Positions 25,101 through 61,862 of a stretch of 64,000 bases of DNA are shown here, one piece after another. Position 1 is the stretch's first letter, and the number at the start of each line of letters is the position of its first letter. Below the pieces are notes generated by a model. It made no database searches, was not told the DNA's origin, and worked only from the letters and a program-made list of their open reading frames with translations. The stretch comes from Syntrophobacterales bacterium (lineage in GTDB: Bacteria; Desulfobacterota; Desulfobaccia; Desulfobaccales; 0-14-0-80-60-11), in assembly GCA_037388025.1 (NCBI GenBank), contig JARRKO010000034.1, forward strand, positions 32,336 to 96,335. The letters are read 5' to 3'. A program made the position numbers and the translations under genes.

Positions 25101-25224
25101 GCGGTTGAACATGGTGGGCGGCACTTTCGAAATCCACAGCCGGGAGCAGGAAGGCACCAGGCTCAGGTTCACCATACCCACCTTACCGGAAAGAGAAAAG
25201 CCATGGAGGCGTTTCATCACATGA
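19144..25224 (+). CDS. Giant cytoplasmic hybrid-less sensor histidine kinase: about 12 PAS/PAC modules, one GAF-like module, HisKA_3 and HATPase_c (2026 aa)
   Basis: PAS modules recur, each closed by a D(I/V)(T/S)ER(K/R)xAEE linker. A GAF-like segment lies around 23520-23960 (FLGVPLKQGDKTIGMVGLGNK). The H-box is ELHDELGHALLAF, the N-box QEALTNIGKHA and the G-boxes DNGQGF and GRGVGLAAMEERL. There is no TM segment. Confidence 0.93.
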   Translation: MKSDAKNSSPDFTDLRRQAEERLKKKATHPEELTPVEAARLIHELQVHQIELELQNEELRQAQVQLAESRDKYTDLYDFAPVGYLTLGKAGKILEANLTAATMLGLERSKLLGLFFPHFLVDTDRRVFRQLLNNGSDLRERRGEFHLQDGNGKARVLLLDILLLQDAEGREQHRVALTDITELKTAQEELRLHKEELEELVAERTTELLEVNEELREANDNLRALFEAAPLAIGVFDAEGKVVSVNPASERLFGWSQEEFKGHLPLSMPTKAPEEARAPLERALQGRSFTGTEVKQQRKDGALIAVSLSAAPLHDAAGRFRGFIGLAEDITERKRAEEAVRTQARVLESMAEAVTVTDSRGHIQYSNPAFDAVFGYEPGELLGRHTNILNFYPPEENRRVVQEILRQLQASGVWSGEFLNRRKDGRSFFTSARISALEVGGEKLFISVQEDITERRQREEMLRRQSELLDLAEDAILVWDMVGRVTYWNRGAEDLYGWPREEAMGQVVHRLLATEFPEPLVDIETRLLEQGRWEGESIHTTRDGSRLIAKSRWSLKRDDKGRPLAILEINNDITARRQAEEALRKSEWRFHRLVEANIIGMAVCDEETIVEANDAFLQMLGYTRGEMQPGELNWVELTPHEYLSLDAQALYELRTTGVHTPFEKAFVRQDGSQVAVMVGGALLEEDPFMWVSFVLDVSERKQLEAELRQSEARFRAIFSNASIGIATTDLKGRFQQFNAPVIKGLGYTPTELRGMSFFEVTHPEDLDKDAGLFAELAAGRRERYQVEKRYIRKDGRVLWGRLHVSLARNLAGEPEFAVSLVEDITARQEAQAALAESEARYRSLVEMSPDAIVVHAKGRIIFANQAGLTLFGAASPEDILGQHIFDLVHPDFLDIVKRRVKRGYAGEPADLREIKLRRFDGQFTDVESAARPITYQGQPAVQVVVRDISERKQAEEEIRRLANFPLLNPNPVIEVDEAGTVVYANPAALHAAQKLRLPHGVEAFVPRNLKEIFTAARTGGPREFSFDLDLKGAIYAVTLHLPHDLPTARLYALDITDRTRAEEALRESEGRERARAAELQALLDTTPGIILLAHDPEGRVITGNRAAYELMRRTPDSNLSKSASAGERPENFRTMQNGREITGAELPVQRAATGETVRDYDIDLVFDDGTVHTILGDAVPLLDEAGQPRGAVAAFLDITERKRTEEALIRSQAELEAIFHSMSDGVIFADLQRRIVLVNPAAEALFGYALEEMQGRTTEFIYASPADYEEQGRRRYHTKPDHPLPVYEMEYRRKDGSVFSAETKGSQVKDDQGRVIGFVSIHRDITERKRAEEELARQRELLQAIIDNIPVMLTFYDPNLKIFRFNKESRRVLGWSEEDLAAMDDPLEFFYPNPEQREQVREYMHYLVPGWRDFQATARDGSLVDSTWANIRLTDDTHIGIGVDIRERKRAEEALQRQDKLTQGINLVLHEALTCETQEDLGRTCLAVAEELSGSRFGFIGQINEAGLLDDIAISDPGWEACTVPGSEEMVLPKGWHFHGIYGQVIREGQSLIANDPAAHPDSIGLPEGHPPLTAFLGVPLKQGDKTIGMVGLGNKPGGYTPADQDAVETLSLAMVEALQRQRSEEALRRAHADLEERVAERTAALSQANEQLLGEIKERQEMEVRLRESEARFAAFMEHLPGLAVMRDMEGRYLFANQAWEKMLNLAPGAWAGKTPTQIWPRKQAKIFQKLDFQVISSGEPMEQVEKLKLADGRHYLLTHRFPINDASGLPFMVGTIAIDVTARQQAEEDLKISEKRLRYLAEQLLTAQEDERRRLASELHDELGHALLAFRLSLSSIAKDLLPEQESIREELLELQAVISEVLGEIRRLYHDLSPGDVEDLGLTKALQSLVENFASHQGHITWQVDLPELDRLFSLPVQTIIYRIVQEALTNIGKHAQAQQVSITAAKKGAKVHFAIQDNGQGFDVARVIRMPGRGVGLAAMEERLNMVGGTFEIHSREQEGTRLRFTIPTLPEREKPWRRFIT

Positions 25225-26847: not shown

Positions 26848-27639
26848 ATGTCCATCGTAATCATTTCCAGAGGGTCGTTCAGTCACGGCAAAGAGGTGGC
26901 AGAAAAACTCGCTGAGAATCTGGGCTACGAATGTGTCTCCCGGGAAATTATCCTTGAGGCCTCAAAGCATTTTAATATTAAGGAACTTAAGCTGATCAGG
27001 GCCATTCACGATGCGCCTTCGCTACTAGATCGCTTCACTCATGGCAAAGAAAGGTATGTGACCTATGTCAGGGAAGCGCTGTTGCACCGCTTACAAAAGG
27101 ATAACGTAGTCTATCACGGTTTGGCCGGCCATTTCTTCGTCCGGGACATTCCCCATGTTCTCAAGGTGCGGATCATTGCCGACCTGGAAGACCGGGTAGC
27201 CGAAAAGGTGAAACGTGAGGGGATTTCGGCTCAGGAGGCCCGGGCGTTTCTGGAAAAAGATGACAAGGAGCGCTACCGCTGGAGTTACCATCTTTATGGC
27301 ATTGATACCAGGGACCCGAGCCTCTATGACTTGGTTATCCATATCACTGCCATCACTACCGAGATGGCGGTGAACATTATTCAATATACCGTCAACCAAC
27401 CCAGGTTCAGGACCACGCCCGAATCTCAAAAGGCCATAGATAATCTGCTATTGGCCGCTCAGGTTCAGGCAGCCTTGGTAGAGGAGGTGCCATCCGCTAA
27501 AGTGAATGTGGAAAATGGCGAACTGGTGGTTAGCATGGGAGTGGCCTGGGGTGAGGACAAAAGATTAATCGCCAAAGTTGATCAGATTGTTGATGATGTG
27601 GGCGGGGTTAAGGCCAAAGTCCGTTTGGTCAACCCGTAA
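26848..27639 (+). CDS. Cytidylate-kinase-like family protein with a BON-like C-terminus, tandem paralogue 1
   Basis: The N-terminus IVIISRGSFSHGKEVAEKLAENLGYECVSRE resembles Cytidylate_kin2-type proteins. The C-terminus (NVENGELVVSMGVAWGEDKRLIAKVDQIVDDVGGVKAKVRLV) is BON-like. A near-duplicate gene follows. Confidence 0.7.
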   Translation: MSIVIISRGSFSHGKEVAEKLAENLGYECVSREIILEASKHFNIKELKLIRAIHDAPSLLDRFTHGKERYVTYVREALLHRLQKDNVVYHGLAGHFFVRDIPHVLKVRIIADLEDRVAEKVKREGISAQEARAFLEKDDKERYRWSYHLYGIDTRDPSLYDLVIHITAITTEMAVNIIQYTVNQPRFRTTPESQKAIDNLLLAAQVQAALVEEVPSAKVNVENGELVVSMGVAWGEDKRLIAKVDQIVDDVGGVKAKVRLVNP

Positions 27640-27708
27640 CCTCACCGTGATTCCCCTAAACTTAACTATCGACATTAAACTTATTTGCATTTGCAAGGGG
27701 GGCCATTT

Positions 27709-28503
27709 ATGGCAATCATTACTATTTCCCGGGGTTCCTACAGCCGGGGCAAAGAGGTGGCTGAAAAGGTAGCCGCCAGGCTAGGTTACGAATGTATCTC
27801 CCGGGATGTCCTTCTGGAGGCTTCGGAACAATTCCATATTCCGGAGATCAAGCTGGTTCGGGCGATCCATGATGCGCCTTCGATTCTAGAACGCTTTACC
27901 CACGGCAAGGAAAGGTATGTGTCATATATCAAGGCAGCTTTATTGAAACATGCCCAGAAAGACAACGTAGTCTATCATGGTTTGGCTGGCCATTTCTTCG
28001 TCCAGGACATTCCCCATGTTCTCAAGGTGCGGATCATTGCCGACCTGGAAGACCGGGTGGCCGAAGAGGTGAAACGTGAGGGGATTTCGGCTGAGGAGGC
28101 TCGGGCGTTTCTGCAAAAAGATGATAATGAGCGCTACCGCTGGAGTTACCATCTTTATGGCATTGATGCCCGGGACCCGAGCCTCTATGACTTGGTTATC
28201 CATGTTAAAACCCTCACCACGGACGATGCCGTACACCTGATAATGTGCGCCCTGCAGAGCCCTCGCTTCCAAACCACTGACAGATCACAGAAAGACCTCG
28301 ACGATCTAACCCTGGCCGCCCGCATCCAGGCGGCTTTGGTAGAGGACTTCCCCTCTGTCGAGGTGAACGTCCAAGATGGGGAGGTTTTCATAGAGATCAA
28401 AGGCCCCGTGGAAGAAGAGGACAAGGTGATCGCCCTGCTGCAACGGTTAGCCGTCAAAGTGGTGGGGATCGAGGTCAAGGTAAATGTCTCAATCATCCCC
28501 TAA
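27709..28503 (+). CDS. Cytidylate-kinase-like family protein with a BON-like C-terminus, tandem paralogue 2
   Basis: Same architecture as 26848-27639. I chose the ATG at 27709 (MAIITISRGSYSRGKEVAEK) by alignment with paralogue 1; the ORF opens at 27685. Confidence 0.7.
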   Translation: MAIITISRGSYSRGKEVAEKVAARLGYECISRDVLLEASEQFHIPEIKLVRAIHDAPSILERFTHGKERYVSYIKAALLKHAQKDNVVYHGLAGHFFVQDIPHVLKVRIIADLEDRVAEEVKREGISAEEARAFLQKDDNERYRWSYHLYGIDARDPSLYDLVIHVKTLTTDDAVHLIMCALQSPRFQTTDRSQKDLDDLTLAARIQAALVEDFPSVEVNVQDGEVFIEIKGPVEEEDKVIALLQRLAVKVVGIEVKVNVSIIP

Positions 28504-28959: not shown

Positions 28960-29054
28960 TGGTGCCGAAGGCGGGATTTGTTTCTGGCTCTGCAGTTCCC
29001 AACCCTTAACCATTGGGAGCCATTCCAGGCCAATCAGCACCTTTTCATTTCCCC
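28960..29054 (-). repeat. Repeat family T, copy 2 (tRNA 3'-end-like 21-mer plus about 75 nt) at the left edge of the AT-rich island
   Basis: Bases 28960-28980 are identical to 109-129. Bases 28981-29054 align with 155-230. The element is immediately preceded by a very AT-rich stretch (GATATTTATAATATTATAA). Confidence 0.65.
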
Positions 29055-29606
29055 AGTTTTCATACCCCCGCTAAAAGACCTTGACCTTGACCAGGGATAG
29101 CCAACAGATTCTAACAAATATGATGAGTAATTCAACACACTAACCATCAGGTGGTAAGGTGTGGATAGAGAGCAGATAGCAAACGTTTAAGAGATCAAGA
29201 ATTATCATTTTCTTGGGCCGAGAATTCTGCCTTTTTTCTCTTTTTCTCACTTTTTTGTAGAAATCAACATGATTTCCAAAGCTCATGTCCCCAAATTCCC
29301 CATCTTGTAAACAAGACTAGACGGACTGGAGGACCCTTCTCCCTTAGCAAAAGCCTTAAGAATTACTTTGATAAATAATTCACATTAGTTAAAAATTGCT
29401 TGACAACGTCAGGCAAATCATGGCATCAAATAAGAAAAATTCTTATGCTTATCCCCTGTGCGTGTAACTATAGAAGCTAAACCTCCTTCCTATTAGTGCC
29501 ATTAAGTTAACCAAGCCAAAGACTTGGGAATTGTCGTTATTTCTATCGATTTTCTAATTGCTGAGATTTCCTTCCGGATACTGTCAGTTTTATGCTTTCG
29601 TGAATA

Positions 29607-30668
29607 ATGAACGGAGAAACTGATATGGAAGAGGACTCAGTCATCAGGGCGGCCGCAGAAGCAATTGGCGCTGGAAAACCCAACGATTACATTATTTCTC
29701 CAACGAAGCATGCTCAAGAATTTCAAGGCAGAGCACCTGCCTTAGCCGCTATTCTGAATTCAGCCGCAGTAAAGACCGATGCTCTTCGTTACGAAGAAGA
29801 AGATCATAGCGCACTAAACGCACAAAATAAATTTAAAACAATTTTTACCCGTGCAAATATTGCTGTCTTCATAACCGGAGCGTTTATAGCGCTTGTTTTA
29901 GTGATCGGGACACTTGGAAAATTTCTGACAGAAGAGAATCTCAAGATTTTCCTTGCAATTCTTAGTTGTGGAGGCTTCATTGCTGGTGGACTTGCATCGA
30001 GGGATTTGTATTTGATTCGGCAGGGTAGCTTACTAGAAGAGTGGATGTCCAAGCGGGCCTTTGCCGAAACTACAAGACTCGACTATTTTAATAGTTTCGT
30101 AAATTTATCACCGCCAACTTCAGAACTAAGTTCCATTCCATTTGAACTATTAAAACTAGAATATTTTCGGCGCTTCCAACTAGATGTCCAACGTGCTTAT
30201 TATAGAAAAAGAGGGCAACAACACAAGGAAGAGGCATTCAGAACTCAGTCTATAAGCGGATGGGCCATAGGGGGCGCAGCCATCGCCACTGGTGCTGCCG
30301 GAGTGCTTAGTGGTGCCATTAATCCGATGTTTGCAGCCGTCGCAGGCATAGGAACCATTTTCACCAATCTCAGTTCCTTCACTTCCATGAAGGAAGCGGT
30401 AAATCAGGATCGCCGCAATGCAGAGCGTTATGAAAGGACTTTACGAGTGCTGGAGGATCTCTACAAAAAGCTTGATGATGTCAGAAAAGCAGTGTATTCA
30501 GCCGGTATCCAGCCCCTCCTAGATTTTGTTGAGGCAGTGCATGAACAGCTTTCTTTGGAACATAGACAATGGCTTAGTGAAATGGTTGAGGGCAAAGGTG
30601 CCTTCGCCAAGCTCGAAAATACCTTGAAAACTACCTTGAAAGAAGTTCAAAACCAAAAAGACAACTAA
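29607..30668 (+). CDS. SLATT-like 4-TM membrane protein (two 2-TM units), first gene of the island
   Basis: The TM pair IAVFITGAFIALVLVIG / IFLAILSCGGFIAGGLA is followed by WMSKRAFAETTRLDYF. A second TM pair, WAIGGAAIATGAAGVLSG / FAAVAGIGTIFTNL, is followed by RRNAERYERTLRVLEDL. A coiled-coil tail follows. An alternative ATG at 29625 has a GGAG Shine-Dalgarno. Confidence 0.75.
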   Translation: MNGETDMEEDSVIRAAAEAIGAGKPNDYIISPTKHAQEFQGRAPALAAILNSAAVKTDALRYEEEDHSALNAQNKFKTIFTRANIAVFITGAFIALVLVIGTLGKFLTEENLKIFLAILSCGGFIAGGLASRDLYLIRQGSLLEEWMSKRAFAETTRLDYFNSFVNLSPPTSELSSIPFELLKLEYFRRFQLDVQRAYYRKRGQQHKEEAFRTQSISGWAIGGAAIATGAAGVLSGAINPMFAAVAGIGTIFTNLSSFTSMKEAVNQDRRNAERYERTLRVLEDLYKKLDDVRKAVYSAGIQPLLDFVEAVHEQLSLEHRQWLSEMVEGKGAFAKLENTLKTTLKEVQNQKDN

Positions 30669-30852
30669 AAATCACCCCACTTATTTTGAGATGCAATGGG
30701 TCCTATCCAAAAGAAAACATATCTAATGCAATCACTAAATGAAGCTTTTTAAAATAAATGTTCCCAACCGATATCAAATCTATTATGAAATTGATTGAAA
30801 ATTTGGGCTATTATTAATCACTAAAAGATTCAATGTCATGGAGGAAATTTCC

Positions 30853-32352
30853 ATGCCAATGAGCCGCTTAGACAGACCCTTAAAAGTTTTTGTGTCCTCG
30901 ACCTCGGAGGACCTTACAGATTATCGTGCCGTTGCGCGACTTGCCATTTGCGATATGAAATGGGCTCCAGACATGATGGAACACTGGACCACCAGACCAG
31001 AATCGACGCGCGAGGCTTGTTTCGATGAGCTTAGTAAATGTGACCTGATGATCCTGATGGTTGCTTTTCGGCGCGGTTGGGTGCCCACAAAAGATCAGGG
31101 GGGCGATGGGCAGAGTTCCATCACCGCTCTGGAATATAAATACGCTCAGGAAAACAACAAGCCAGTGCTGGTGTTTCTGGCAAAAGATAACTGGCCTGGA
31201 AATCTGTGGGAAAGAGACCCATCCGCCATGGAGTGGATTGAGAATTTTCGTAATGAATTGAACCAAATTGCCAAATTTTTTGAATACGAGAAACCCGCAG
31301 GGGATGAAAAGGAAAGTTTTCCAGTTTTCCGTGCCGAAATACGCAGGGCCCTTTCTGATTATCTCCTCCGCCTTATCCAAGATTCCGGTGAGCTCGAGGA
31401 GCCTGAACCTACCTTACAGCCTGAAGATTTTGATCAATTTGAGGGGGCATGCCAGGCGCTTCAGATGGGGGGATGCATCCCCTTTTTGGGACCTGGAATT
31501 TACGGTGAGGAAGGACCTCTTTCTTCGTGCTCTATAATAGAAGCCCTGGCTGATAAGAAATGTCTTGAAAGGACCCTGGCCACCGCTGCTGAGTACCGAG
31601 AACGCCGTCTTAAGTTCCGGGATTCGTTCTTAATTCGGTTGGAAAAGATTATCAATGAACAGGGCATGCAAACCAAGGAGCCAGTAGTTTTTGAACTTTT
31701 GTTAAAATCTAAACCAGCGCTTATCGTTAGCGCCACCGAAGATCTTTTGTTGGAACAAAGGTTGGAGAAAGCAAATCATCCTCTTTTGATCTTTTGCCAT
31801 GTTATTCGGTCATTAAACGGTAAGCATGACGGAAAAATTATTATGTTTCGTGGTCCTAATGATCCCAACCCTAAATTTCATGATGCAGATAGTATTGCTC
31901 TGAGTTCCACTAAAGACACTTTTATCATTTACAAGCCTTTGGGATCGCCGTTGTTGAACCGTTTAATTAATGACGATCTGAAGGATGATGCGATCGATAC
32001 GGTAGTTATGACTGAAACCGATCACCTGATTCTATTAAGTCGACTGGAAAATCAAAGCACTAGAGTTCCCAATGCTTTTAGCCGTTATTTCCAGAGGTTA
32101 CCCCTGATCTTCCTTGGCTATCCCATGGATGTCTGGCATTACCGTCTTGTTGGTCAAGTTTTCAGGAACAGCGGTGAAACCAGTATGAAACCCATGAGGC
32201 TAGCTGTGCGGCGAACATTTTCTCTCATGGAAAAATTATCTTGGCGAAATCTCGAAGTGGAACTGCTACCCATGGATCCCGATGAGTTAGCCAGAAAAAT
32301 TCTCGATGAACTCAATGAACTTGCGGGGAAAAAAGTGCAGGAGACACCATGA
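30853..32352 (+). CDS. DUF4062 (TIR-like) N-terminal domain fused to a SIR2_2-like C-terminal domain
   Basis: The N-terminus KVFVSSTSEDLTDYRAVARLAI...CDLMILMVAFRRG...SITALEYKYAQENNKPVLVFL follows the DUF4062 pattern. The C-terminus CIPFLGPGIYGEEGPL...LIVSATEDLLLEQ...LPLIFLGYPMDVWHY follows the SIR2_2-like pattern. The ORF opens at 30838, and the ATG at 30853 has GGAGG 8 nt upstream. The stop overlaps the next start (ATGA). Confidence 0.75.
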   Translation: MPMSRLDRPLKVFVSSTSEDLTDYRAVARLAICDMKWAPDMMEHWTTRPESTREACFDELSKCDLMILMVAFRRGWVPTKDQGGDGQSSITALEYKYAQENNKPVLVFLAKDNWPGNLWERDPSAMEWIENFRNELNQIAKFFEYEKPAGDEKESFPVFRAEIRRALSDYLLRLIQDSGELEEPEPTLQPEDFDQFEGACQALQMGGCIPFLGPGIYGEEGPLSSCSIIEALADKKCLERTLATAAEYRERRLKFRDSFLIRLEKIINEQGMQTKEPVVFELLLKSKPALIVSATEDLLLEQRLEKANHPLLIFCHVIRSLNGKHDGKIIMFRGPNDPNPKFHDADSIALSSTKDTFIIYKPLGSPLLNRLINDDLKDDAIDTVVMTETDHLILLSRLENQSTRVPNAFSRYFQRLPLIFLGYPMDVWHYRLVGQVFRNSGETSMKPMRLAVRRTFSLMEKLSWRNLEVELLPMDPDELARKILDELNELAGKKVQETP

Positions 32353-35300
32353 ACACCCAAGATAACCTTAATTCTGCGGTACCCCTGCCGGATACTCCTT
32401 TTGTGGGCGCAAGGCCCTTTGAGCAAAAAGAGCAAGCCATTTTCTTTGGCCGGGATCGGGATGCTGTTCTCCTTCGGGACAAAATATTCTCTTCCAAGCT
32501 CACTGTTTTCTATGGTCTATCGGGTGTCGGCAAATCATCAATCCTGCGAACCCTCCTGGTTCCTTACTTGGAAGATCAGGAAGCCTTTGTCATCACTTTC
32601 GATGGCTGGAGCAGCAACGACCCCGTCATGGCCATCAAGACCGAGCTAATCAAAGAGGCTATCAGGCTAAGGATTCCGGATCCAGGCGCAGGCGCTCCGA
32701 CACTTGCTGACCTTATTCGTCTCCTGATCAGCGTTGATGGGCGGACCGTGGTGCTCATCCTGGACCAGTTCGAGGAGTTCTTTACCCATGGCCACCGCCC
32801 AGCTCTCTTGCGCCGGGAACTTGGGTCTTTGGTGCGCAGCCCCAACCTTGATGTCAGGATTCTCCTGTCCTTACGGGAGGAGCACCTCGCCTCCCTCGAG
32901 CCTTTCAGGTCTGAGATCGTAAACCTGTTTCAATCTACTTATCGACTCGAGCTCATGAACTCCGAAGGTGGTCGGGAAGCTATTGAGGGACCTCTAAAGG
33001 TGTTCAAGGTGGAATATGAACCAAAACTAGTAGATACTTTAATTAACGATCTGCGGCTGGAACAGCATTCGACCAAGACCGATCGTCCGACTGCCACCGA
33101 CGACGCACCTATAGACCTGCCGATGCTGCAACTGGTCTGTGACGAGCTGTGGAAGGAAGCAACGAAGGAAAAAGCGAAAAAGCCGGGGTCAATAAAATTT
33201 ACCCTGGATTTATATAAAAGTCTGGGAGAACGACAAGGCATCCTGGAGATCTATCTCCAGCGTGTCATGCCGCACCACTGGCGCCAGAAGTATCTTACTG
33301 CCCGGCTCATGGAGCATCTCGCCCCGCCGGAAGGGTACAAAGTTGCCCTTTCTGCAGACTACTTGGCTCACCGTATCAAGACCCCCCGGTCCAAGGTAAA
33401 TTATGAACTCGAACGTCTCAGCGATGACGAAGTGCGTGTTCTACAAAGCCGAACATATGAAGGCGACGTTGTCCGCTACGAGCTCAGACATGACAGGTAT
33501 ATTCCCATCATCGCGAACTGGCGCGACCAGGTCTTAAGGAACATTAGACGCTGGCGCAATGCGATCAGTACAGCTGTCATCCTGATCTTAATGGTTTTCG
33601 GCGTCTTATTGGTGGACGGATATATTCTTCACAGGAACACAGTGGGGGTCATGACCAGGGAAGACCTATCCTCTCAAGGTGGGGACAGAGAAGAGCTTAT
33701 GGCGAGAAAGTTTGATCAAGTCGCCAATTATCTCATCTGGACCAGAACTTGGTATAATCCCTATCATTTAGTGTGGGAAAATCGCTTCGATTACTTGAAG
33801 AAAATCCTTATTAAATACGGACCTAAGTTGCCTAAGAATTATGGCATCGAGCGTTCAGGGGTGGAGTTCATTACCTTGCCCTCTGAACAGGAGGATTGGC
33901 CTCTGACGGTGAGCTACTCGAGCTCCCGGGGGTTAAATCCCTTTATCTTTACCCAAATGTGGCAATCCATTGCTACAACCCTGTTAAATAAAAAATGGGG
34001 TATCCCGGTCCCCTTGAAGCTTCGACTGATTAAAGAGGATATTCCCAAGGAGCAGATCAAATTAACCAGGCCCCATATCAAAGAACCGAAATATTTTAAT
34101 AACATTCCGGCTTACGAGGATAAAGCATTCATTAGATGCAACCCCAAAAATCTTCTGGGTACGGCTCAAATTTTTTTCGAGAGATTCAGAGGCGAGTGGA
34201 TAAAAATCGATCCAAAAGAGACTAAAGAGGAGAAGAATGAGGAAGAATCCGGAGAATCAATCTGGGTAATCCCCCGCTGGTCCCTGCCGGCCTGGAAAGC
34301 TTCAGGCGAAACCATTTATGACGGCAGCGCTCTGCCGGCCTATATTCTGGTATACAGGCTGGTTTCCCATCTTGAATTATTGCTGACTCCCGACGCCATG
34401 GAGATTCTCCTAGAAAAAGTCGCCAAAATGTATCCTGAGACAGTGGCTGAGGCCCGTGCTGTCCGTGGGGACCAACTCTTGGAGGATATCCAGGAAATTA
34501 ATTACCGAATGATTTTAGAGGACAGGGACTTGCTCAACCAGTTACCTACTATCCTGGACGCCCTGGCAAACTACCCGGAAAAATCATCGAAGGAAATTGC
34601 TAATGAGGTCTCTTCAGACATTGATTCTTTCCGGGTTTCTTTGCAGTCAGGACTCAGAGGCCCCCACAAGACCAAACCTCGGCCTCCTGAAGTTAAATTT
34701 CCTGAAGCCTATCGAGAGGCCGGCAACTGGCTCCCGAATTTTAAATCCAAAGTTCGAGTCTATCATGGAGTAGACCTGCTCCCTAAGTGGTTCACGAATC
34801 AAGGAGATTTTAAGCCTGAAGTCCTTACGCAACTTAAAAAAATCCAGGACAGAGTCTTTAAACAGTTCGGAGTTCCTATGCCAGCCGGGAAACTTATAAT
34901 GCTTCCTAACCTCACCGGCAACACCCTGCGCGTGGAGCTCATGAATCAGACAACCCAACATTCCCATGCTGACGTATTCCAGGTTGACCAGGAGGATGCC
35001 CTGAAGCAGCTCGCCGCGGCTTTGACCTTCCGGCTGGATTCCTACCGGATTCATTTCTTGAACGCTGAGCAGGTCCGCAAGATTCTGGATGACCTCAATC
35101 CGGCTGTGAGGTCGTGGTTACAAACCCGTTATTCTCTCACCGATCTGAAACTGCTTCTGCGAACGGTAATAAACCCCTCTGCAGAAGAGCTCAAGTATCG
35201 GAAGAAAATGTTCGCTAAGGGAGTCCTGGATCAGACTCGTGGGATTCCAGACGGCAGCACCATCCGTCAGCCGGGCTGGCTCCTGGCCTCCCTCGTCTTC

Positions 35301-37481
35301 TGGTCTCAGGTTGACGATTACCTTTATCTCCGGGATATGGCCGCAGACCTGCGCAAGACCCAACACGCCAGGCTCAATGCCAAGACAGTGTCCCCCACAG
35401 GGGAGGTCGCCAAACTTATAATCAAGGGCGTCAGGTGTCTGGATCAGGGGCACATTGATGAGGCGGAGAAGGCCTTCTCCGAAGCCATACAATCTGACCG
35501 GAAATCTGCAGTCTCCAGTTTCCTGGCCTTTTATCCCCAGGAGCTTCAGCAGCAACTCATCCAAGCCCATAAAGAATTGTTTGCCGGCCTTCTGGCCCCC
35601 TCCCAAGAGCTAAAGCAATTGAGAAAATTATTATTTCGTGACCTCAAGTTGGCAGAGTTGAAGGCCAATTTAAACGACTCCTTGATCGACCTGGTTTTCG
35701 ACAAGAACGAGGATATGCGAGCTCGCCGCCGCATTATGATGTTATTTCTTGACGTTTCTGAGTTTACCCGAGACCAATGGCTCAAACTGGTTGACTATTC
35801 TCTGGCTAAATTCGGTTCGCCGCTCAAGTGGCCCGCCAACGAAACCGCGTTTTTTGGTACACTGCTCTTAATGAGACAGGACCAGCTTCTCGATCTGCCG
35901 GGTTCCACCGGGCCCAAATTTACTAAATATGGTTTGGTTTTATTGAAGATTGCCCAGCGACGACTTGACAATCAAGATACCTTTCAGCAGACAAGCAAGG
36001 TTCTAAAGATTTTTAAAAGACCAGGAAACCTGGAGTTAAGCCGCCCAGAAAGAATCGAGCTGGAGGATTTGGTGGACCAAAAGGGCCTTGATGATAAAAC
36101 AGCCCGGTGCCTCCGCCTGTGTTTGTTAGCCGCCTATCCGGAGAGCTATCGCCAGGATAAACGCACCCTTACCGATAAGATCGTCAAGCTGCATGGCACC
36201 CCGGACCGGTGGCCGGCGGAGGAGGCCGCCTGGTTCGGCCTCAGGCTCTTGTCAGAGTTCGACCCCCTGACTGATGACCAGAAAATCCCGGAAAAAGGCA
36301 TGGATTTTCTGACCCGAGCCATGCCCCAACTCCGCGGGGCAGAAGCTAAAAATCTGTCGACTAAAATTTTGACAATTTGTGGAACGCGCGGTCCCAACCA
36401 GTGGTGTTGGAACCTCGTGCCTGGTCTGGCGAAAAGCCGCAAGGACCCATTTTTATACTTTAATATTGGCTTGTTCCTGGCCGAGCGCGAGGTTCCGGCC
36501 GATCTGGAGTATGCCTGCACCCTGGCAGAGCGGGCCAAAAAAGGATTTAGCAATTTAAACCTTCCTCCGAAAAAAAGAGATGCTTTAATAGATTACGCTG
36601 ATTTCCTGTGGGCCAGAGCTACCTTGGGACTGGCCATCTTAGGTGCTGAGTTGGACCGCGAAAAGGTGGAAAAGGTGGAATACATCTTTGCCCGCCTCTT
36701 GAAATCAGAGAATCTGGGGAGCTCAGCACATGAGCAAATGGCCAGGCTGAGATTGTGGGAAAAACGCCCCCAGGAAGCCGCTGAAATCATCGACCTGGCG
36801 ATCCAGAAATGGCCCAACGAGCAAGAACCTTACGGTTTGAAACTGAAAATGCTGCTTGAGGCTGGTGATGACGAGGGCGCGGCCAAAGTTGCCCACAAGG
36901 CAGGGACCTTGGTCGAGAGGGTCGACGGAAAAATTACCTACGAATCTAGCGGCTTTGCCTTCGTCTGGGCCCTGGGGCTGCTTATGACCCATACCGACCC
37001 CTGGGAACGGTCCGCCCGTGATTTTCTGCAAACCGATCATCCTTACGTGCCTTATATAGCCATGCTGCTGTATGCGCATTTGACCGGCAAGGATAAGGAA
37101 GAGGCCCTGAAGGTGATCCAACAGCACTGGGCCCGGGTCCGGCCGGAGACCTGGGAGGAGCGACTGCGACAAAGAGATCAAACCGTCTGGCGGGAGATGC
37201 TTATCGGTTACTACCTCAATAAGGTCCCAGCTGAGAGGATTCTCGGTCCTCTGGAGGACGACAGAAAGTTTGACAAATCAGAGCTCAGCAAGGTTCCCAT
37301 GCCTCGAAAGGGTATGCTCTGTGAAGCTTACTTTTATGATGCTTTGCTTGCCAAAGCCCAGGGGAAGAGAAGTCGAATGAAAGCCAGTTTACAAAAAGCT
37401 GCGGACTCAAATTACCAGAGTTACTTCGAGTATGGCATGGCCAAGTATCTGCTGGCTCAACTGAATCAGAAGCAACCCTAA
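32349..37481 (+). CDS. 1710-aa STAND-type P-loop NTPase with one TM helix, two FlhA/FHIPEP-C-like modules and a C-terminal TPR-like region
   Basis: AGGAG Shine-Dalgarno. The lead-in is PFVGARPFEQKEQAIFFGRDRD. Walker A GLSGVGKSS lies at 32514-32540 and Walker B is VVLILDQFEEFF. The TM helix AISTAVILILMVFGVLLVDGYIL (about 33561-33630) follows RNIRRWRN. The C-terminus is TPR-like (RLRLWEKRPQEAAEIIDLAIQKWPNEQEPYGLKLKMLLEAGDDEGA). Confidence 0.85.
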   Translation: MNTQDNLNSAVPLPDTPFVGARPFEQKEQAIFFGRDRDAVLLRDKIFSSKLTVFYGLSGVGKSSILRTLLVPYLEDQEAFVITFDGWSSNDPVMAIKTELIKEAIRLRIPDPGAGAPTLADLIRLLISVDGRTVVLILDQFEEFFTHGHRPALLRRELGSLVRSPNLDVRILLSLREEHLASLEPFRSEIVNLFQSTYRLELMNSEGGREAIEGPLKVFKVEYEPKLVDTLINDLRLEQHSTKTDRPTATDDAPIDLPMLQLVCDELWKEATKEKAKKPGSIKFTLDLYKSLGERQGILEIYLQRVMPHHWRQKYLTARLMEHLAPPEGYKVALSADYLAHRIKTPRSKVNYELERLSDDEVRVLQSRTYEGDVVRYELRHDRYIPIIANWRDQVLRNIRRWRNAISTAVILILMVFGVLLVDGYILHRNTVGVMTREDLSSQGGDREELMARKFDQVANYLIWTRTWYNPYHLVWENRFDYLKKILIKYGPKLPKNYGIERSGVEFITLPSEQEDWPLTVSYSSSRGLNPFIFTQMWQSIATTLLNKKWGIPVPLKLRLIKEDIPKEQIKLTRPHIKEPKYFNNIPAYEDKAFIRCNPKNLLGTAQIFFERFRGEWIKIDPKETKEEKNEEESGESIWVIPRWSLPAWKASGETIYDGSALPAYILVYRLVSHLELLLTPDAMEILLEKVAKMYPETVAEARAVRGDQLLEDIQEINYRMILEDRDLLNQLPTILDALANYPEKSSKEIANEVSSDIDSFRVSLQSGLRGPHKTKPRPPEVKFPEAYREAGNWLPNFKSKVRVYHGVDLLPKWFTNQGDFKPEVLTQLKKIQDRVFKQFGVPMPAGKLIMLPNLTGNTLRVELMNQTTQHSHADVFQVDQEDALKQLAAALTFRLDSYRIHFLNAEQVRKILDDLNPAVRSWLQTRYSLTDLKLLLRTVINPSAEELKYRKKMFAKGVLDQTRGIPDGSTIRQPGWLLASLVFWSQVDDYLYLRDMAADLRKTQHARLNAKTVSPTGEVAKLIIKGVRCLDQGHIDEAEKAFSEAIQSDRKSAVSSFLAFYPQELQQQLIQAHKELFAGLLAPSQELKQLRKLLFRDLKLAELKANLNDSLIDLVFDKNEDMRARRRIMMLFLDVSEFTRDQWLKLVDYSLAKFGSPLKWPANETAFFGTLLLMRQDQLLDLPGSTGPKFTKYGLVLLKIAQRRLDNQDTFQQTSKVLKIFKRPGNLELSRPERIELEDLVDQKGLDDKTARCLRLCLLAAYPESYRQDKRTLTDKIVKLHGTPDRWPAEEAAWFGLRLLSEFDPLTDDQKIPEKGMDFLTRAMPQLRGAEAKNLSTKILTICGTRGPNQWCWNLVPGLAKSRKDPFLYFNIGLFLAEREVPADLEYACTLAERAKKGFSNLNLPPKKRDALIDYADFLWARATLGLAILGAELDREKVEKVEYIFARLLKSENLGSSAHEQMARLRLWEKRPQEAAEIIDLAIQKWPNEQEPYGLKLKMLLEAGDDEGAAKVAHKAGTLVERVDGKITYESSGFAFVWALGLLMTHTDPWERSARDFLQTDHPYVPYIAMLLYAHLTGKDKEEALKVIQQHWARVRPETWEERLRQRDQTVWREMLIGYYLNKVPAERILGPLEDDRKFDKSELSKVPMPRKGMLCEAYFYDALLAKAQGKRSRMKASLQKAADSNYQSYFEYGMAKYLLAQLNQKQP

Positions 37482-37704
37482 AATGGCTTGATCTTTTATT
37501 TCTAATTCCTTATTATACCGCATTATTTGGGTTAACAACCGAATGAATGTTGCACATCGACCAACTTCCAAAACCTTTCAGAATAATTCAAAATCATTTG
37601 GTCCCTTACATGGTTGTTGCTCTCCACTCGGAGACGTATATTCTTGGACCTCAGTGAATTTCGCCACTGAAAAACCGGCAGGCCAAAATGGAATTCGGAG
37701 AAGA

Positions 37705-37908
37705 TATCTTGCCAAACCCGACAGTTATCATCGGACCTCGAAAAATTGCAGTTATGGTTTGATTATCAAAACAGGGGGGTGGTGCCCCAAATATTGGCTA
37801 TCCGGACCTTTTCAGGCTGGTGCCCTTAATGATAAGCTCCATGTGTTGATATTTTCTGTTTATGGGAAGTTTTTGGCTGCGTGATAAGTTTCTAAGAAGA
37901 GCAGTTAT
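37705..37908 (+). repeat. Repeat family R, copy R2 (204 bp)
   Basis: Starts TATCTTGCCAAACCCGACAGTTATCATCGGAC and ends GGGAAGTTTTTGGCTGCGTGATAAGTTTCTAAGAAGAGCAGTTAT. The central part diverges from the other copies. Confidence 0.8.
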
Positions 37909-37990: not shown

Positions 37991-40229
37991 TTATCCGCTT
38001 CGTTTTCTCCGCCAGCCCAGGAGTCCCAGGCCCAAAAGTCCCGAGCCCAGGAGGAACACGGAAGGGGGCACCGGGGTGGGGTCAGGTTTGAGCTGGCCCA
38101 GGCCCCCCGCAAAGTCGTAGGTCTTGCCCAAAAGGTAAGCGTTGATCAGCAAGTCAGGATCGTAATAGATATTTATCTCCTCATCGTCGTCATTGAAGAT
38201 GTTATACACCATCTTGGTGAACCAGTTCACCTTGGCGCCGATCAAGCCCCCCACATACTGAGCCGTGCCCTCGTTACTGTCGTTGCCATCAAAGAGGTGC
38301 ACGGTTTGTCCGAGGATAATCAGGGTGCCCCATTCAAAGCCGTTGGTGCCCGAGGGGCCTTTGTCCTCCCCGGGGATATAAAAGTTGTGACTCTTGTCAG
38401 CCCCCGTGACGAATTTCAGGGTAGCCGCGGCGGTGTCCCAGGCGGAGGCATTAATGCTCATATTGTTGAAATCATTTTTGATTTTGAACACATCCTGGGA
38501 GTGCCCCACCAGGTATCCTGTTTGGATAACGGGGTCCGGGACTGTTAGGTCGGTGAAGGTCTGGGTGGCATGATCGCTGATATAGGCGCCCTTGTTGGTG
38601 AAGGTGCCGTTCCAGGTGACGATGGCCTTGGTGGTGTTGACGGTGCCGTTTGACGGTGCCGTAATTCTCCACGTCGCCGGTCACCGTGGTGATGGTGTTC
38701 ATGACGTTGAAGGTGTCATTGGCGTCTATATCGATGGTTTTGGCGGACAGGATGCCGCCATTGAGGTTGTAAGTGCCAGTCCCGCCGAGCGGCGAGAGGG
38801 TCAGGGAGTTGGTGACTATATTGGCGCCGCCATTCTGGTTAAAGACGCCGGTGCCCACTGGCCCGATCATCTCGTCGTTAGCCTTGAGGGTCCCGCGGTG
38901 GAGATTGTAGGTGCCGCTGCTGCCAAATTGAGCCGCCAGGGTGAGGATACCGGCCACCGTGTGGGTGCCGCCGGTTTGGTTGAAGACGCCGGTGCCGTTA
39001 TAGCCGATAAACTCGTCCCCACTAACCGAGAGGCTGCCGTCCTTTGACAAGTTATAGGTGCCGCTGCCGGTGGCCTCATTGCCCAGGGTGAGGTCAAGGC
39101 CTACCGTATGGGTGCCGCCGCTCTGATTGAAGGTGCCGCTGCCGGAGTTGCCGATATATTCATTACCGGCCACCGAAAGACTGCCGCCCTTCAGGTTGTA
39201 GGTGCCGCTGCCGGTGGGTCTATAAAAATAGCCCAGGAAAAGATTTTTGGTGCTAACCGTATGAGTGCCGCCGCTCTGGTTGAAGATGCCGCTGCCGAAG
39301 CTGCCGATATATTCATTAAAGTCAGTAACCACTAAATTGCCGGACACTAGATTGTAGGTGCCGAGGGCATCTCGAACACTTCCAAGTTCGAGACCTTTTA
39401 CGGTGTTGCTCCCTCCGGTCTGGTTGAAGGTACCGGTGCCGATACTTTCGCCCTCAGCCTGGAGGGAGCCGCCTTTCAGATTATAGGTACCGATGCCGCC
39501 AAAATCATATCCCACGTAGAGAAGACCTGAGGCCGTATGGGTACCGCCGAATTGGTTGAAGGTGCCGGTGCCGGAGTAGCCGATATATTCATTACCGGCC
39601 AGCGGACCGGCCACCGAAAGGCTGCCGCCACTCAGGTTATAGGTGCTGTTAATACCACCAAGAAAAAGGAATTGGGTTATCGTATTGGTGCCGCCGCTCT
39701 GATTGAAGGTGCCGGCGCCCTGGCTACCTATAATTTCATTGGAGGCCAAGAGGCTGCCGCTGCCGCTGAGATTGTAGGTGCCTTTACCGGTGGGGTTATA
39801 ACCGAGGATAAGTTGGCTACTTCTAGGGTTGGTATTTACCGTATTGCTGCCGCCGCTCTGGTCGTAGACCCCCTTGCCGTCCAGGCCGATAGTCTCATTA
39901 TCGGCGGTCAGGGCGTTGCCGGACTGTTGCAAGGTGATGTTGCCCCAGCCGGTGGCATCAACGGTAAGGGCGGACAACATCGGATTGGATGAGGTATTGT
40001 AAATGACAGTCTTAGGGAAGAAACCACTCTGGGTGACGAAGACGTCATCTCCGGCCCCCGGCTCCCCTGACGGGCTCCAGTTGCTGGCCGTAGTCCACAG
40101 ATTATTGAAGGGGGTGCCGACCCACTGTTTGGTGACGGCCAGGGCCGGCTGGGCCATAAGGACCAGTAGCAAGGCGGCGGTGGCAATGAGAGTCCATAAG
40201 CATCTGGTCTTGGTGCTATCCGGTTGCAT
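37991..40229 (-). pseudogene. Repeat-rich secreted PEP-CTERM protein, split by a 13-bp tandem duplication (frameshift)
   Basis: Signal peptide MQPDSTKTRCLWTLIATAALLLVLMAQPALA, with the ATG at 40229 and an AAGGAG Shine-Dalgarno. There are about eight G(T/S)G(T/V)FNQxGG(T/S)(N/H)T(V/I)...GTYNLxGGSL repeats. The C-terminal sorting signal is PVPPSVFLLGSGLLGLGLLGWRRKRSG. The reading frame switches at 38637-38662 between ORFs 38472-40286 and 37991-38509. Confidence 0.85.
38637..38662 (-). repeat. Perfect 13-bp tandem duplication (TTGACGGTGCCGT x2 on the + strand) causing the frameshift
   Basis: Bases 38637-38649 equal 38650-38662. Removing one unit joins ...TVTGDVENYGTV to NTTKAIVTWNGTFTNKGAYISDH... 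in one frame. Confidence 0.9.
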
Positions 40230-40439
40230 GAGCGGGTTCTCCTTTTCCCCATAGGACAGCTGCTGGCCTGAAATAAGAAACACCAATCCGCTAAAAAATA
40301 AAGCAATTTTTGTGCCTTTATTAACCTCTTGAAATTCTTAGAGTCGCCCAAAGGAATGGTTCGGAGGATGAAACATTGCGTTTCATTCTCTGAACTTTTT
40401 ACACCCTTATGAATAGGGTGCAAGTTTAGGTTGAGTCTA

Positions 40440-40643
40440 TATCTTGCCAGTCTTTGCAGTTATCGCCTCGCCCTGAAAAATTGCAGAGATGATCTACATA
40501 TCAGAACAAGGTGAGGCGGATCCGTGGCTAAGTTATGGGAACCCTTAAAGGGTAGGGCTTTGGATGATGGATTTGATGTTTCCATATTGGATGGATAAGT
40601 AGAATTTTCAGTGGCTTGATAAGTTGCTAAGAAGAGTAGCCAG
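40440..40643 (+). repeat. Repeat family R, copy R3 (204 bp)
   Basis: TATCTTGCCAGTCTTTGCAGTTATCGCC...ATATCAGAACAAGGTGAGGCGGATCCGTGG...GAATTTTCAGTGGCTTGATAAGTTGCTAAGAAGAGTAGCCAG. Confidence 0.85.
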
Positions 40644-50838: not shown

Positions 50839-51042
50839 TAACTTGCCAAACCTCGCAGTTATCACCAGACATTCAAGAATAGCAGCTATAGTTTGAATAT
50901 CAGAACAAGGCGGGGCAGATCCGTGGATGGGTTTCGGGGACCCTTGGGAGATTAGGCCCTGGATGAGAGGCTCAATGTTTTGATATGGGATAGATATGTA
51001 GAATTTTCAAAGACTTGATAAGTTTCTGCTTAGAGCAGATAG
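50839..51042 (+). repeat. Repeat family R, copy R5 (204 bp)
   Basis: TAACTTGCCAAACCTCGCAGTTATCACCAGAC...AATAGCAGCTATAGTTTGAATATCAGAACAAGGCGGGGCAGATCCGTGGATGGG...GACTTGATAAGTTTCTGCTTAGAGCAGATAG. Its closest relative is the copy at 61604-61807. Confidence 0.9.
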
Positions 51043-57759: not shown

Positions 57760-57882
57760 TGGTTTGCTCCAGACAGATAAGGGAAGATCGACTCTTACCC
57801 CAAGTTCTGTCTAGAAAACCCTTGCCATAACAAAATCCGGCGCGCCGGACACGATTACGAAAATAATGAAGTTATTAGAAAA

Positions 57883-57990
57883 TAGCTTGCCAGCCCTGAC
57901 AGTTATTACTTTGCCATGAAAAATTCCAGGTGTGCTCTGAATATCAAATCTTGGGTAGGGTAGTCGAGAGGAGGTCTGCTGAATTTGTGG
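57883..57990 (+). repeat. Repeat family R, copy R6 (about 108 bp, 3'-truncated)
   Basis: TAGCTTGCCAGCCCTGACAGTTATTAC...GAAAAATTCCAGGTGTGCTCTGAATATCAAATCTTGG aligns with the first ~75 nt of R3. The TGATAAGTT 3' module is absent. Confidence 0.65.
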
Positions 57991-58841: not shown

Positions 58842-59108
58842 AGCGACTCGAAAAAAGTAAAATAAATTCATTCTTATTTCTCCAAATCTTCCTTGGCCGA
58901 TAAAATATGCTTCCCCGAAAATCTTTTTGAATCTGAACTGCCTTTTTTCCTCCCGATTGGTCATGGGTAGCTGTCAATCACTTCGAATAAATTATAATAT
59001 TTTTTATTAAGCTGGCAAACGCACTCTATTCCTTTCTTGGGCCAGCGGGCCAGTGCCTGCCAGTAATGTTGTACGGAAGGAAGAAATATTAACTAAAGGA
59101 AGTGCTTA

Positions 59109-59262
59109 TAACTTGCCAAACCTCGCAGTTATCACTTCCCCTTGAAAATTGCAGAGATGATTTGAATATCAGAACAGAGATGGGTTGACCCAAGAATAGG
59201 CTATGAAGACACGCACTGGCTGGCGCCCTCCATGGTGAGGCTGGTGTTAATAGGGCAGTTAT
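59109..59262 (+). repeat. Repeat family R, copy R7 (about 154 bp, internal deletions)
   Basis: The 5' end is TAACTTGCCAAACCTCGCAGTTATCAC...AAAATTGCAGAGATGATTTGAATATCAGAACA. The 3' end is GTGTTAATAGGGCAGTTAT. Confidence 0.7.
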
Positions 59263-61807: not shown

Positions 61808-61862
61808 CGCTTCCTCTAATTAAGCATCCAATGCTAAGAAAAGCTTACCGATGGTTCTTACC

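Follow-up and report, generated by a model that had tools for sequence, protein, structure and literature searches.

A rare gene pair coding for a SIR2-like protein and a predicted single-pass transmembrane STAND NTPase in a Syntrophobacterales bacterium

Three co-directional open reading frames (ORFs), here called ORF1, ORF2 and ORF3, lie next to each other in a stretch of 64,000 nucleotides (nt) from a Syntrophobacterales bacterium (contig JARRKO010000034.1 of assembly GCA_037388025.1) which was analysed as a whole and is referred to as the window. We found that ORF2 (gene A) and ORF3 (gene B) form a conserved pair. When the ORF2 alignment was used to scan the GTDB species, each represented by one genome, 45 loci were obtained, and five places, two of them duplicates, were added by exact-protein look-up. 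At 45 of 45 loci and at five of five look-ups an nSTAND1 gene comes directly after the SIR2-like gene, that is at 50 places of which 48 are distinct. From their sequences we read ORF2 and ORF3 as a real, rare and unannotated system, a variant of the STAND conflict systems in which known parts are arranged in a new way. On balance we favour the view that both genes constitute a two-gene conflict module, probably of the anti-phage or abortive-infection type, that operates by the mechanism proposed below and to which ORF1, a SLATT protein, may be added as an optional extra effector.

Results

The conserved unit comprises ORF2 and ORF3

In the window ORF2 and ORF3 are coupled by an ATGA start/stop overlap with a GGAG motif 6 nt upstream of it (Table 1), and where both gene ends of the homologous pairs can be read reliably the two genes likewise share 4 nt or leave a gap of at most ~30 nt. 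The likeliest start of ORF2 is the ATG at 30853, which is preceded by GGAGG 7 nt upstream. Between ORF1 and ORF2 there is no translational coupling. All three ORFs are real genes, as many full-length homologues were found (E down to 1e-150). A first-pass annotation of this DNA had described the three co-directional ORFs, the overlap of the last two, a SLATT-like ORF1, a DUF4062/TIR-like and SIR2-like ORF2 and a membrane-anchored STAND NTPase as ORF3, and had been unable to match the three genes to a named system; the coordinates, the profile and structure matches given below and a PADLOC run agree with this description.

Genes of the ORF1 type are a different matter. The window and one other locus, in a Desulfobaccales metagenome-assembled genome (L001/L002), are the sole places where an ORF1-type SLATT gene is close to the pair; in the latter the orthologue is 71% identical and is located three genes downstream of the pair on the opposite strand. 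In Geomonas azotofigens a different SLATT_1 gene coding for 191 amino acids (aa) lies directly upstream of the pair, and Pfam SLATT_1 was detected at 2 of 28 non-redundant pair loci. As the pair is always syntenic while an ORF1-type SLATT gene rarely adjoins it, the conserved unit is ORF2 plus ORF3.

The neighbourhood of the homologous pairs was also inspected, and defence and conflict genes were found there. The L001 pair is adjoined by Cas3, Cse1, AbiE and an integrase, and the pair at locus L004 by Abi_C. Among 140 flanking ORFs from 28 loci, TPR-S (8), MAP3K_TRAF_bd (5), CHAT (3), patatin (3), TIR (3), trypsin (2) and AbiEii (2) domains were counted. A gene with MAP3K_TRAF_bd and TPR-S domains is present 0.1-3 kb downstream of the pair in several lineages, at L001 (16402-17730), L006 (17748-19067), L012-L016 and L017 and is absent from the window; at L001, L006 and L012-L017 this gene could be a third component.

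Gene A has a constant SIR2-like domain and exchangeable N-terminal domains

An exhaustive HMMER search with the SIR2-like domain of ORF2 against 1.84 billion cluster representatives yielded 238 proteins with E <= 1e-3, 108 with E <= 1e-10 and 71 with E <= 1e-30. The gene A family is rare, with ~100 clusters among ~1.8 billion representatives, and its hosts are Acidobacteriota, Planctomycetota, Nitrospira, Desulfobacterota, Gemmatimonadota, Myxococcota and Zoogloea-type Betaproteobacteria. In essentially all full-length matches the SIR2-like domain is located C-terminally. A domain census of 76 representatives at 50% identity revealed SIR2_2 in 69, caspase in 36, DUF4062 in 25, TIR_2 in 16, EAD1/EAD5 in three, and CHAT and trypsin in one each, and about half of the genome loci match ORF2 by the SIR2-like half alone. 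Gene A carries a caspase domain alone at L024, L025 and L042, TIR_2 together with caspase in Zoogloea, Casimicrobiaceae, Polyangiaceae and Nannocystis, and EAD1 in Kofleriaceae. Because the SIR2-like domain is constant and the N-terminal part varies, the exchanged N-terminal domains look like the effectors. The caspase-only relatives retain the His/Cys dyad in the motifs SGHG and DCC[YF]SG. When the TIR plus caspase protein of Zoogloea (L029, residues ~130-330) was examined by eye, LDCIFS was found in place of DCC[YF]SG; the catalytic Cys of the caspase may thus be lost where a TIR domain is present.

In ORF2 itself the N-terminal domain is a DUF4062 domain (PF13271, 63.6 bits with a gathering threshold of 24.7). 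The profile of the ORF2 family matches the solved structure of the DUF4062 domain of KpSwz (10wc) with E = 1.1e-7. Among the members with a DUF4062 domain, conserved residues are F13, S16, T17, S89, T91, E94 and W114; the aromatic residue on the N-terminal side (F13), the motif S-x-T and E94 are thus all retained in ORF2. DUF4062 has been described as a TIR-like NADase, i.e. an enzyme cleaving nicotinamide adenine dinucleotide (NAD+), in Swarozyc and human TEP1 (bioRxiv 10.64898/2026.05.01.722283), and the defence activity of Evangelion requires DUF4062 (bioRxiv 10.64898/2026.06.25.731849). An NADase activity of the DUF4062 domain of ORF2 is plausible.

The C-terminal half is less easily recognised, as Pfam SIR2_2 matches ORF2 with a sub-threshold score of 17.9 bits. 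However, the AlphaFold2 model of ORF2 has a mean predicted local distance difference test (pLDDT) value of 88.8, and the top Foldseek matches of its SIR2-like part are DSR2, KomC and ThsA (E ~1e-6, template modelling score ~0.65, isolated SIR2 chains). In addition, the family profile matches KomC with E = 1.8e-5. At the level of the predicted structure, the SIR2 fold of the C-terminal half is confirmed. ORF2 has 196 homologues and no hydrophobic segment.

The residue counts for the family are based on 163 sequences. The GxG loop of SIR2 proteins is retained (G213 in 160 of 163 sequences, G215 in 148). Stand-alone SIR2_2 proteins, which served as outgroup, contain the motifs TTNYD and [YF]K[MIL]HG[ST], and these align with SATED and YKPLGS in ORF2. 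Thus the position of the catalytic Asn (TTNxD) is occupied by T295, with Asn in 5/163 members, and the position of the catalytic His (K-x-H-G) is occupied by L363 within KPLG, with His in 2/163 members; no member has both residues. Two other residues had been regarded as candidates for the His. R333 was suggested by the HMMER alignment with KomC and by a few members with a VFHG motif and was rejected since the outgroup alignment puts the His at L363. H316 was rejected as a relocated catalytic His since outgroup proteins with the canonical Asn and His also have His or Tyr there, so that this position is conserved in the wider clade.

The SIR2 NADase of PaAvs5 functions without the HG motif and still needs its Asn, Asp and Glu (bioRxiv 10.1101/2025.07.08.663546). 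As the Asn, which is essential even in Avs5, is missing in ORF2, a canonical NADase role of the SIR2-like domain is unlikely and a scaffolding or regulatory role appears to be the better reading. This differs from the first-pass annotation, which had considered an NAD-targeting SIR2 effector plausible.

ORF1 is a SLATT protein outside of the conserved core

ORF1 matches the NCBIfam family SLATT_1 (NF033634) with 45.3 bits (cut-off 41). The Pfam SLATT_1 match at residues 192-322 scores 21.8 bits, under the gathering threshold of 26.3, and residues 66-155 match Pfam DUF4231; most ORF1 homologues have a precomputed Pfam SLATT_1 assignment. The protein has the SLATT layout, as hydrophobic pairs at residues 85-130 and 220-260 are followed by conserved helices with W146..R150..AE154 and R270-NAERY. 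It can be described as a tandem SLATT protein with four transmembrane (TM) helices, with hydrophobic segments at residues 85-103, 112-130 and 220-238. The likelier start is M7 (29625), which would give 347 aa, according to the homologue alignment and to the database gene call P0121 of the same length.

The ORF1 family is conserved, with 432 matches, and goes its own way. At 82 of 83 loci with an ORF1 homologue both partners are missing, at the remaining one there is an unrelated nSTAND1 gene, and an ORF2-like gene is present at none. At 29 non-redundant loci the neighbours include Pkinase (4), canonical TIR_2 (4), other SLATT, patatin, trypsin, TPR-S and nSTAND1 genes. From these data ORF1 is a member of a promiscuous family of putative conflict-system effectors which sometimes adjoins the ORF2-ORF3 pair and which is optional or accessory, outside of the conserved core. 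As an observation on the family itself, a Ser/Thr protein kinase gene lies directly 5' of an ORF1-family SLATT gene at five independent loci from metagenomes and genomes (L052, L053, L056, L064 and L070); kinase and SLATT may form a separate two-gene module.

The first-pass annotation had suggested, as a plausible model, one system of three genes with a STAND sensor that controls both a SIR2 NADase (ORF2) and a SLATT pore (ORF1) as effectors. All four domain families are indeed present, ORF1 is on the same strand only 184 nt upstream of ORF2 with no predicted terminator between them, the ORF1 orthologue belongs to the island of the L001 pair, a SLATT_1 gene precedes the pair in Geomonas, and ORF1 and ORF2 share an unusually low GC content at third codon positions (GC3). 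Nevertheless, we regard a three-gene system as improbable. The scarcity of SLATT genes at the pair loci and of both partners at the ORF1-family loci speaks against it, the catalytic Asn and His of SIR2 are missing throughout the family, and if the SIR2-like part were the effector one would expect it to vary and the N-terminal part to be constant, the opposite of what is found.

The opposite view would be that a stand-alone SLATT gene and the ORF2-ORF3 pair are unrelated neighbours which were joined in a small, horizontally acquired islet. This is a possible, though in our opinion doubtful, explanation. It would account for the ORF1 homologues being mostly solo or accompanied by Pkinase, TIR or patatin partners, for the lack of translational coupling and for the L001 orthologue being three genes off on the opposite strand. 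Furthermore, the spacer between ORF1 and ORF2 contains a promoter-like site at 30785-30814 and no terminator is predicted on its + strand; as promoter and terminator sites are not denser than in shuffled sequence, these scans speak neither for nor against a co-transcription of ORF1. On the other hand, three lineages (that of the window, the Desulfobaccales genome and Geomonas) have SLATT genes close to the pair, and SLATT is a known partner of TIR enzymes in type VII Thoeris while ORF2 has a TIR-like domain. We keep ORF1 as an optional effector of the two-gene module.

ORF3 is a predicted single-pass membrane protein with an nSTAND1 module

ORF3 matches nSTAND1 (PF20703) with 123.1 bits, the gathering threshold being 27.1. 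It contains a Walker A motif (GLSGVGKSS) and a Walker B motif (VVLILDQFEE), of which GLSGVGKS and LILDQFEE are conserved in the homologues. Compared with the partner genes at L001, L003, L004 and L006 the NTPase module shows 47-57% identity, and a phmmer search with the module against the PDB found no solved relative.

Downstream of this module a single strongly hydrophobic segment is found, with a Kyte-Doolittle value of 2.64 compared to 1.53 for the next best segment and with a charge of +4 on its N-terminal and 0 on its C-terminal side. Nearly all homologues have an equivalent segment of 19-23 residues with Kyte-Doolittle values up to 3.24, whether the downstream region is of the type found in the window, consists of TPR only (Geomonas) or of WD40 repeats (L004). 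In the homologues, too, the N-terminal flank is the more positive one (+3 to +7, compared to -3 to +3 on the C-terminal side). As there is one span and the ATPase is cytoplasmic, the 1,280-residue C-terminal region is predicted to be outside the cytoplasm.

Part of this region resembles the cytoplasmic domain of FlhA (FlhA-C). Pfam FHIPEP matches residues 626-750 with 21.3 bits and was found in 4 of 13 ORF3-type members. A profile of 13 homologues covering the part behind the TM helix matches FlhA-C of H. pylori (3myd) in two stretches with E = 3.9e-10 and also InvA, MxiA, LcrD and EscV; further on it matches TPR proteins. A homologue search with residues 500-1010 returned only 3 proteins, and the AlphaFold2 model of these residues (4-row alignment) had a pLDDT of 38.7 and was unusable, so that the FlhA-C-like assignment is at the level of profiles. 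The C-terminal region proper, which is 40-42% identical in L001 and L006, has weak matches to TPR_2 and TPR_19 and also to NlpI, PrsT and PilW, and the ORF3-type profile matches consensus TPR structures with E = 2.8e-7. NlpI, PrsT and PilW are envelope-associated lipoproteins; these matches are thus compatible with a periplasmic location of the C-terminal region of ORF3. Taken together, the FlhA-C-like and TPR part is predicted to be a sensor region facing the periplasm. Both the FlhA-C-like part and the predicted extracytoplasmic position of the sensor go beyond the first-pass annotation.

We put forward, as a tentative idea only, that the ORF3 family represents single-pass transmembrane STAND receptors: a FlhA-C-like, TPR or WD40 sensor outside the cytoplasm would respond to an envelope event or to an invader that is about to enter or is entering, and would pass the signal inward, and the NTPase would then assemble TIR-like or caspase effectors by means of a dead SIR2 adaptor.

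Instead, the helix could merely be a tether or be buried, in which case the sensor would be cytosolic and the pair would be a split Avs5-type sensor of phage proteins. In Avs and Apaf-like proteins, sensors of the FlhA-C, TPR and WD40 kinds are as a rule cytosolic, and Avs5, with SIR2, STAND and TPR, is localised at the membrane by an N-terminal hydrophobic sequence (bioRxiv 10.1101/2025.07.08.663546). We consider this arrangement rather unlikely for ORF3, as the segment is strongly hydrophobic, of the length given above, the sole one of the protein and accompanied by a conserved positive N-terminal flank, and as a single span puts the two ends of the protein on opposite sides of the membrane. 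In addition, Avs models are included in PADLOC and NCBIfam and neither collection gave a match.

Composition, borders and other features of the locus

The coordinates of the features are compiled in Table 1. The first-pass annotation had described the three genes as an AT-rich block. This holds for ORF1 (GC 0.443, GC3 0.384), for ORF2 (GC 0.458, GC3 0.454) and for the intergenic DNA of the block (GC 0.30-0.44). It does not hold for ORF3 (GC 0.507, GC3 0.583), which is near the window mean of 0.522 and near the genes of the left flank.

Table 1. Features of the three-gene block and its borders (positions in the window)
Feature	Position	Strand	Remarks
Dispersed repeat copy	28960-29057		other copy at 108-229; membership of the island a possibility only
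13-mer	29168-29180	+	exact match to the 3' end of an R repeat copy, 61796-61808
ORF1	29607-30668	+	353 aa
Spacer between ORF1 and ORF2	30669-30852		184 nt, 30% GC
ORF2 (gene A)	30853-32352	+	499 aa, two domains, predicted cytosolic; alternative start 30838
DUF4062 (TIR-like) domain	30883-31392	+	ORF2 residues ~11-180; probable effector domain
SIR2-like domain	31435-32349	+	ORF2 residues ~195-499; constant module, canonical Asn and His absent
ATGA start/stop overlap of ORF2 and ORF3	32349-32352	+	couples both genes
ORF3 (gene B)	32349-37481	+	1710 aa, predicted single-pass membrane STAND protein
nSTAND1 NTPase module	32397-33497	+	ORF3 residues 17-383; Walker A K62, Walker B D139/E142-E143
Sole TM helix (predicted)	33573-33629	+	ORF3 residues 409-427, AVILILMVFGVLLVDGYIL
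FlhA-C-like (FHIPEP cytoplasmic-domain-like) part	34224-34946	+	ORF3 residues ~626-866
Helical/TPR-like C-terminal region	35376-37478	+	ORF3 residues ~1010-1710
Full R repeat copy	37705-37908	+	one of 7 in the window; possible right edge

No integrase or transposase gene is present in or beside the three-gene block, and its flanks contain the housekeeping genes TauE, two cytidylate-kinase-like paralogues, cytochrome b561 and a histidine kinase. The two paralogues (Cytidylate_kin2, PF13189) form a tandem at 26848-27639 and 27685-28503 (+) directly upstream of the island and are 74% identical over 300 nt.

On the left side a dispersed element is present which is ~80% identical to its second copy at 108-229, with a 24-nt deletion in the copy next to the block, and of which one strand terminates in ...CTTCGGCACCA. 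The first-pass annotation had regarded it as a tRNA-3'-end-like repeat. This interpretation, as well as that of an att site, had to be given up, since ARAGORN and Rfam (gathering and E-value modes) were negative and the element folds about as well as shuffled sequence (z = -0.58). A tRNA-Pro(CGG) that ARAGORN predicted at 36204-36280 (+) is probably a false positive, as it lies within the conserved coding sequence of ORF3 and no tRNA is found there by Rfam at the gathering threshold.

The other two border features, the 13-nt fragment of the R repeat on the left and the full R copy on the right, were seen again as described. The R repeat is intergenic and occurs in 7 copies of 85-204 nt (37705-37908, 40440-40643, 50839-51042, 57875-57959, 59083-59200, 60397-60497 and 61604-61807); in the right half of the window, several of them separate genes encoded on the minus strand. 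Its invariant core is CTTGCCA..C....CAGTTAT, followed by the well conserved ..TGCAG..TTTGAATATCAGAAC, and it matches no Rfam family. According to a rough estimate, the chance of finding an exact R-derived 13-mer in the 1.1-kb edge is ~0.007. This is suggestive of the 13-mer marking the left edge of an insertion beside an R element.

Further features of the window were noticed that concern other genes. A fluoride riboswitch (crcB motif, RF01734) is present at 61454-61525 (-) with 45.6 bits (gathering threshold 34, E = 2e-9). An ORF of 2026 aa at 19144-25224 (+) with a GC3 of 0.74 has 12 repeats spaced ~320-520 nt, each of which closes with a conserved junction of the D-I-T-E-R-K-R-A-E-E type; it resembles an extended series of PAS-like sensor modules. 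In the gene pair at 37991-38509 (-) and 38472-40286 (-) a repeat protein of 604 aa has nine units spaced ~70-160 nt with a GTFNQSGG-type motif, and the neighbouring protein of 172 aa ends with a PEP-CTERM-like sorting signal (VPPSVFLLGSGLLGLGLLGWRRKR); neither of the two has a Pfam match.

Discussion

Comparison with known systems

PADLOC recognised no system for ORF1, ORF2 or ORF3, and only weak matches of ORF3 to the P-loops of mad8 and NsnB were obtained. As the family is rare and absent from PADLOC, it would be missed by current annotation. A literature search (nSTAND1 with DUF4062; SLATT, STAND, SIR2 and TIR; STAND with FlhA; inactive SIR2) likewise found no description of a SIR2-like/nSTAND1 pair.

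The pair fits the conflict systems with EAD-coupled effectors of Kaur, Burroughs, Iyer and Aravind (eLife 2020, 2021), who defined nSTAND1 and noted a membrane association for some of these systems. The pair has the NTPase clade, the effectors (caspase, TIR, trypsin, EAD1, EAD5), the hosts and the exchange of effectors in common with them. A SIR2-like domain that serves as a constant module coupling effectors to nSTAND1 is not described in the searched text of either paper, and FlhA is not mentioned in that of the 2020 paper.

A similar order of domains is found in the SAMD9/9L family, which includes bacterial members: AlbA effector, variant Sir2-like domain, STAND, TPR and OB fold (PMC5445408). 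In the cryo-electron microscopy study of SAMD9L the authors propose a scaffolding role for the Sir2-like domain, which is preceded by the effector (bioRxiv 10.64898/2026.02.01.703102). The pair has the same order, with an N-terminal effector, a Sir2-like domain directly before STAND, and TPR; this is a resemblance of architecture only. The pair differs as it is split into two coupled genes, has DUF4062, caspase or TIR instead of AlbA, belongs to the nSTAND1 clade, has a TM helix after the NTPase and lacks the OB fold. Moreover, SAMD9 and SAMD9L were absent from the PDB profile matches and from the top 50 Foldseek matches, no direct comparison with a SAMD9 sequence having been made.

Avs5 (AVAST type 5) is similar in that a SIR2 fold lies immediately upstream of STAND and a helical-repeat sensor and in that it is membrane-associated. 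However, its SIR2 domain is an active NADase effector needing N110, D112 and E202, whereas ORF2 has a Thr at the Asn site. Avs5 is a single cytosolic protein, and in Avs systems effector, STAND and sensor are united in one polypeptide, whereas here the effector is on a separate protein.

With Swarozyc and Evangelion the pair shares the N-terminal DUF4062 domain, but these are single genes with an own C-terminal AUX sensor and without STAND, in contrast to ORF2 with its SIR2-like domain and a separate STAND gene. In TEP1, NWD1 and NPHP3 DUF4062 is paired, as in our case, with a STAND (NACHT) NTPase and repeats.

Type VII Thoeris consists of the TIR protein ThsB and the SLATT effector ThsH with cyclic ADP-ribose as signal (bioRxiv 10.64898/2025.12.03.692087). 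Here the similarity is a gene of a TIR-type enzyme beside a SLATT gene, and members of the ORF1 family lie beside canonical TIR genes at 4 of 29 loci. Nevertheless, Thoeris has no STAND protein and a canonical TIR domain, while ORF2 is a DUF4062-SIR2-like protein and most homologous pairs are without SLATT; neither a Thoeris system nor ORF1 by itself was matched by PADLOC.

Finally, the relationship of ORF3 to FlhA, InvA and EscV is a profile-level similarity to subdomains of FlhA-C. Unlike these proteins ORF3 has no export gate of eight TM helices, having only one, and its partial stretches are in another order and predicted to be extracytoplasmic.

Proposed mechanism

We suggest that a cue would be sensed by the outward-facing region of ORF3, upon which the cytoplasmic nSTAND1 module would exchange its nucleotide and oligomerise at the membrane. 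ORF2 would dock on the activated ORF3 or co-oligomerise with it by its dead SIR2-like domain, comparable to what has been proposed for SAMD9L. The DUF4062 domains would thereby be clustered and switched on, leading either to depletion of NAD+ or to a signal derived from ADP-ribose. Where a SLATT protein is present it might be opened by the product of ORF2, as in type VII Thoeris. Of this picture, the sequence analysis shows the domain identities, the coupling of the genes, the exchange of N-terminal domains, the loss of the SIR2 dyad and the conserved TM helix with its charge bias; topology, trigger, scaffold role, NADase activity, the SLATT link and each functional step are inferred.

Several points weigh against this reading. 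The topology of ORF3 is predicted solely from hydropathy and charge bias, and FlhA-C is natively a cytoplasmic domain. Low GC3 is common to ORF1 and ORF2 and not to ORF3, despite the translational coupling of ORF2 and ORF3. No other defence genes were found near the block in the window and no relatives of ORF2 were found in viral contigs and in a plasmid collection, so that the support for a defence island comes from a few homologous loci. E97 of KpSwz, the Glu that was mutated there (E82 in the PDB chain; E87 in Eva01), aligns with A92 of ORF2 in the HMMER profile alignment, and therefore NADase activity of DUF4062 is not assured; a Glu two residues further on, E94, is present in 140 of 163 family members, the exceptions being members without DUF4062. 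Lastly, H316, G364, E388, D390, W428 and R431 of the SIR2-like domain are invariant in all 163 sequences and D297 is found in 162. Together with the retained GxG loop this indicates that the SIR2-like pocket is under selection, be it for ligand binding, assembly or an unorthodox chemistry; ligand binding or non-canonical catalysis would mean that its role is not purely structural.

Some of these points would also fit a system that is not directed against phages, namely a receptor-like cell-death or signalling system for envelope or extracellular cues such as kin/non-kin contact, envelope damage or development, comparable to the conflict systems of multicellular bacteria (Kaur et al. 2020). The predicted position of the sensor outside the cytoplasm, the absence from viral and plasmid collections and the lack of defence genes near the window locus point in this direction. 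So do the hosts, i.e. Acidobacteriota, Planctomycetota, Myxococcota, Nitrospira, floc-forming Zoogloea and Desulfobacterota, and the effectors (caspase, TIR, EAD1, EAD5) and neighbours (TPR-S, MAP3K_TRAF_bd, CHAT, trypsin), which are typical of those conflict systems. We see some chance for this explanation and would not expect it to prevail, since some homologous loci lie beside Cas3, AbiE or Abi_C, and DUF4062, SIR2-fold and STAND proteins of tested function are mostly anti-phage. In any case it differs from the anti-phage reading only in the trigger and would leave the mechanism as it is.

Implications

To our knowledge, all bacterial STAND or NLR-type immune sensors that have been tested (Avs, bNACHT) are cytosolic. 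If the predicted topology is true, a STAND family with a conserved span and an outward sensor would make an "outside-in" mode of bacterial innate sensing testable. Such a family would correspond, in bacteria, to the transmembrane pattern-recognition receptors while being built from NLR-type parts. If the similarity in architecture holds, it would also be related, in a prokaryotic and split form, to the SAMD9-type order of effector, Sir2 scaffold and STAND.

The SIR2-like domain can be seen as a natural experiment: its catalytic dyad has been lost, yet no other part of the effector protein is as conserved, a STAND gene always lies beside it, and the heads in front of it (caspase, TIR, DUF4062) are exchanged. 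A parallel is seen in human SAMD9/9L, for whose Sir2-like domain a scaffold role has been proposed. In addition, the locus links DUF4062, recently recognised as an NADase domain, to STAND regulation in bacteria, comparable to human TEP1, NWD1 and NPHP3.

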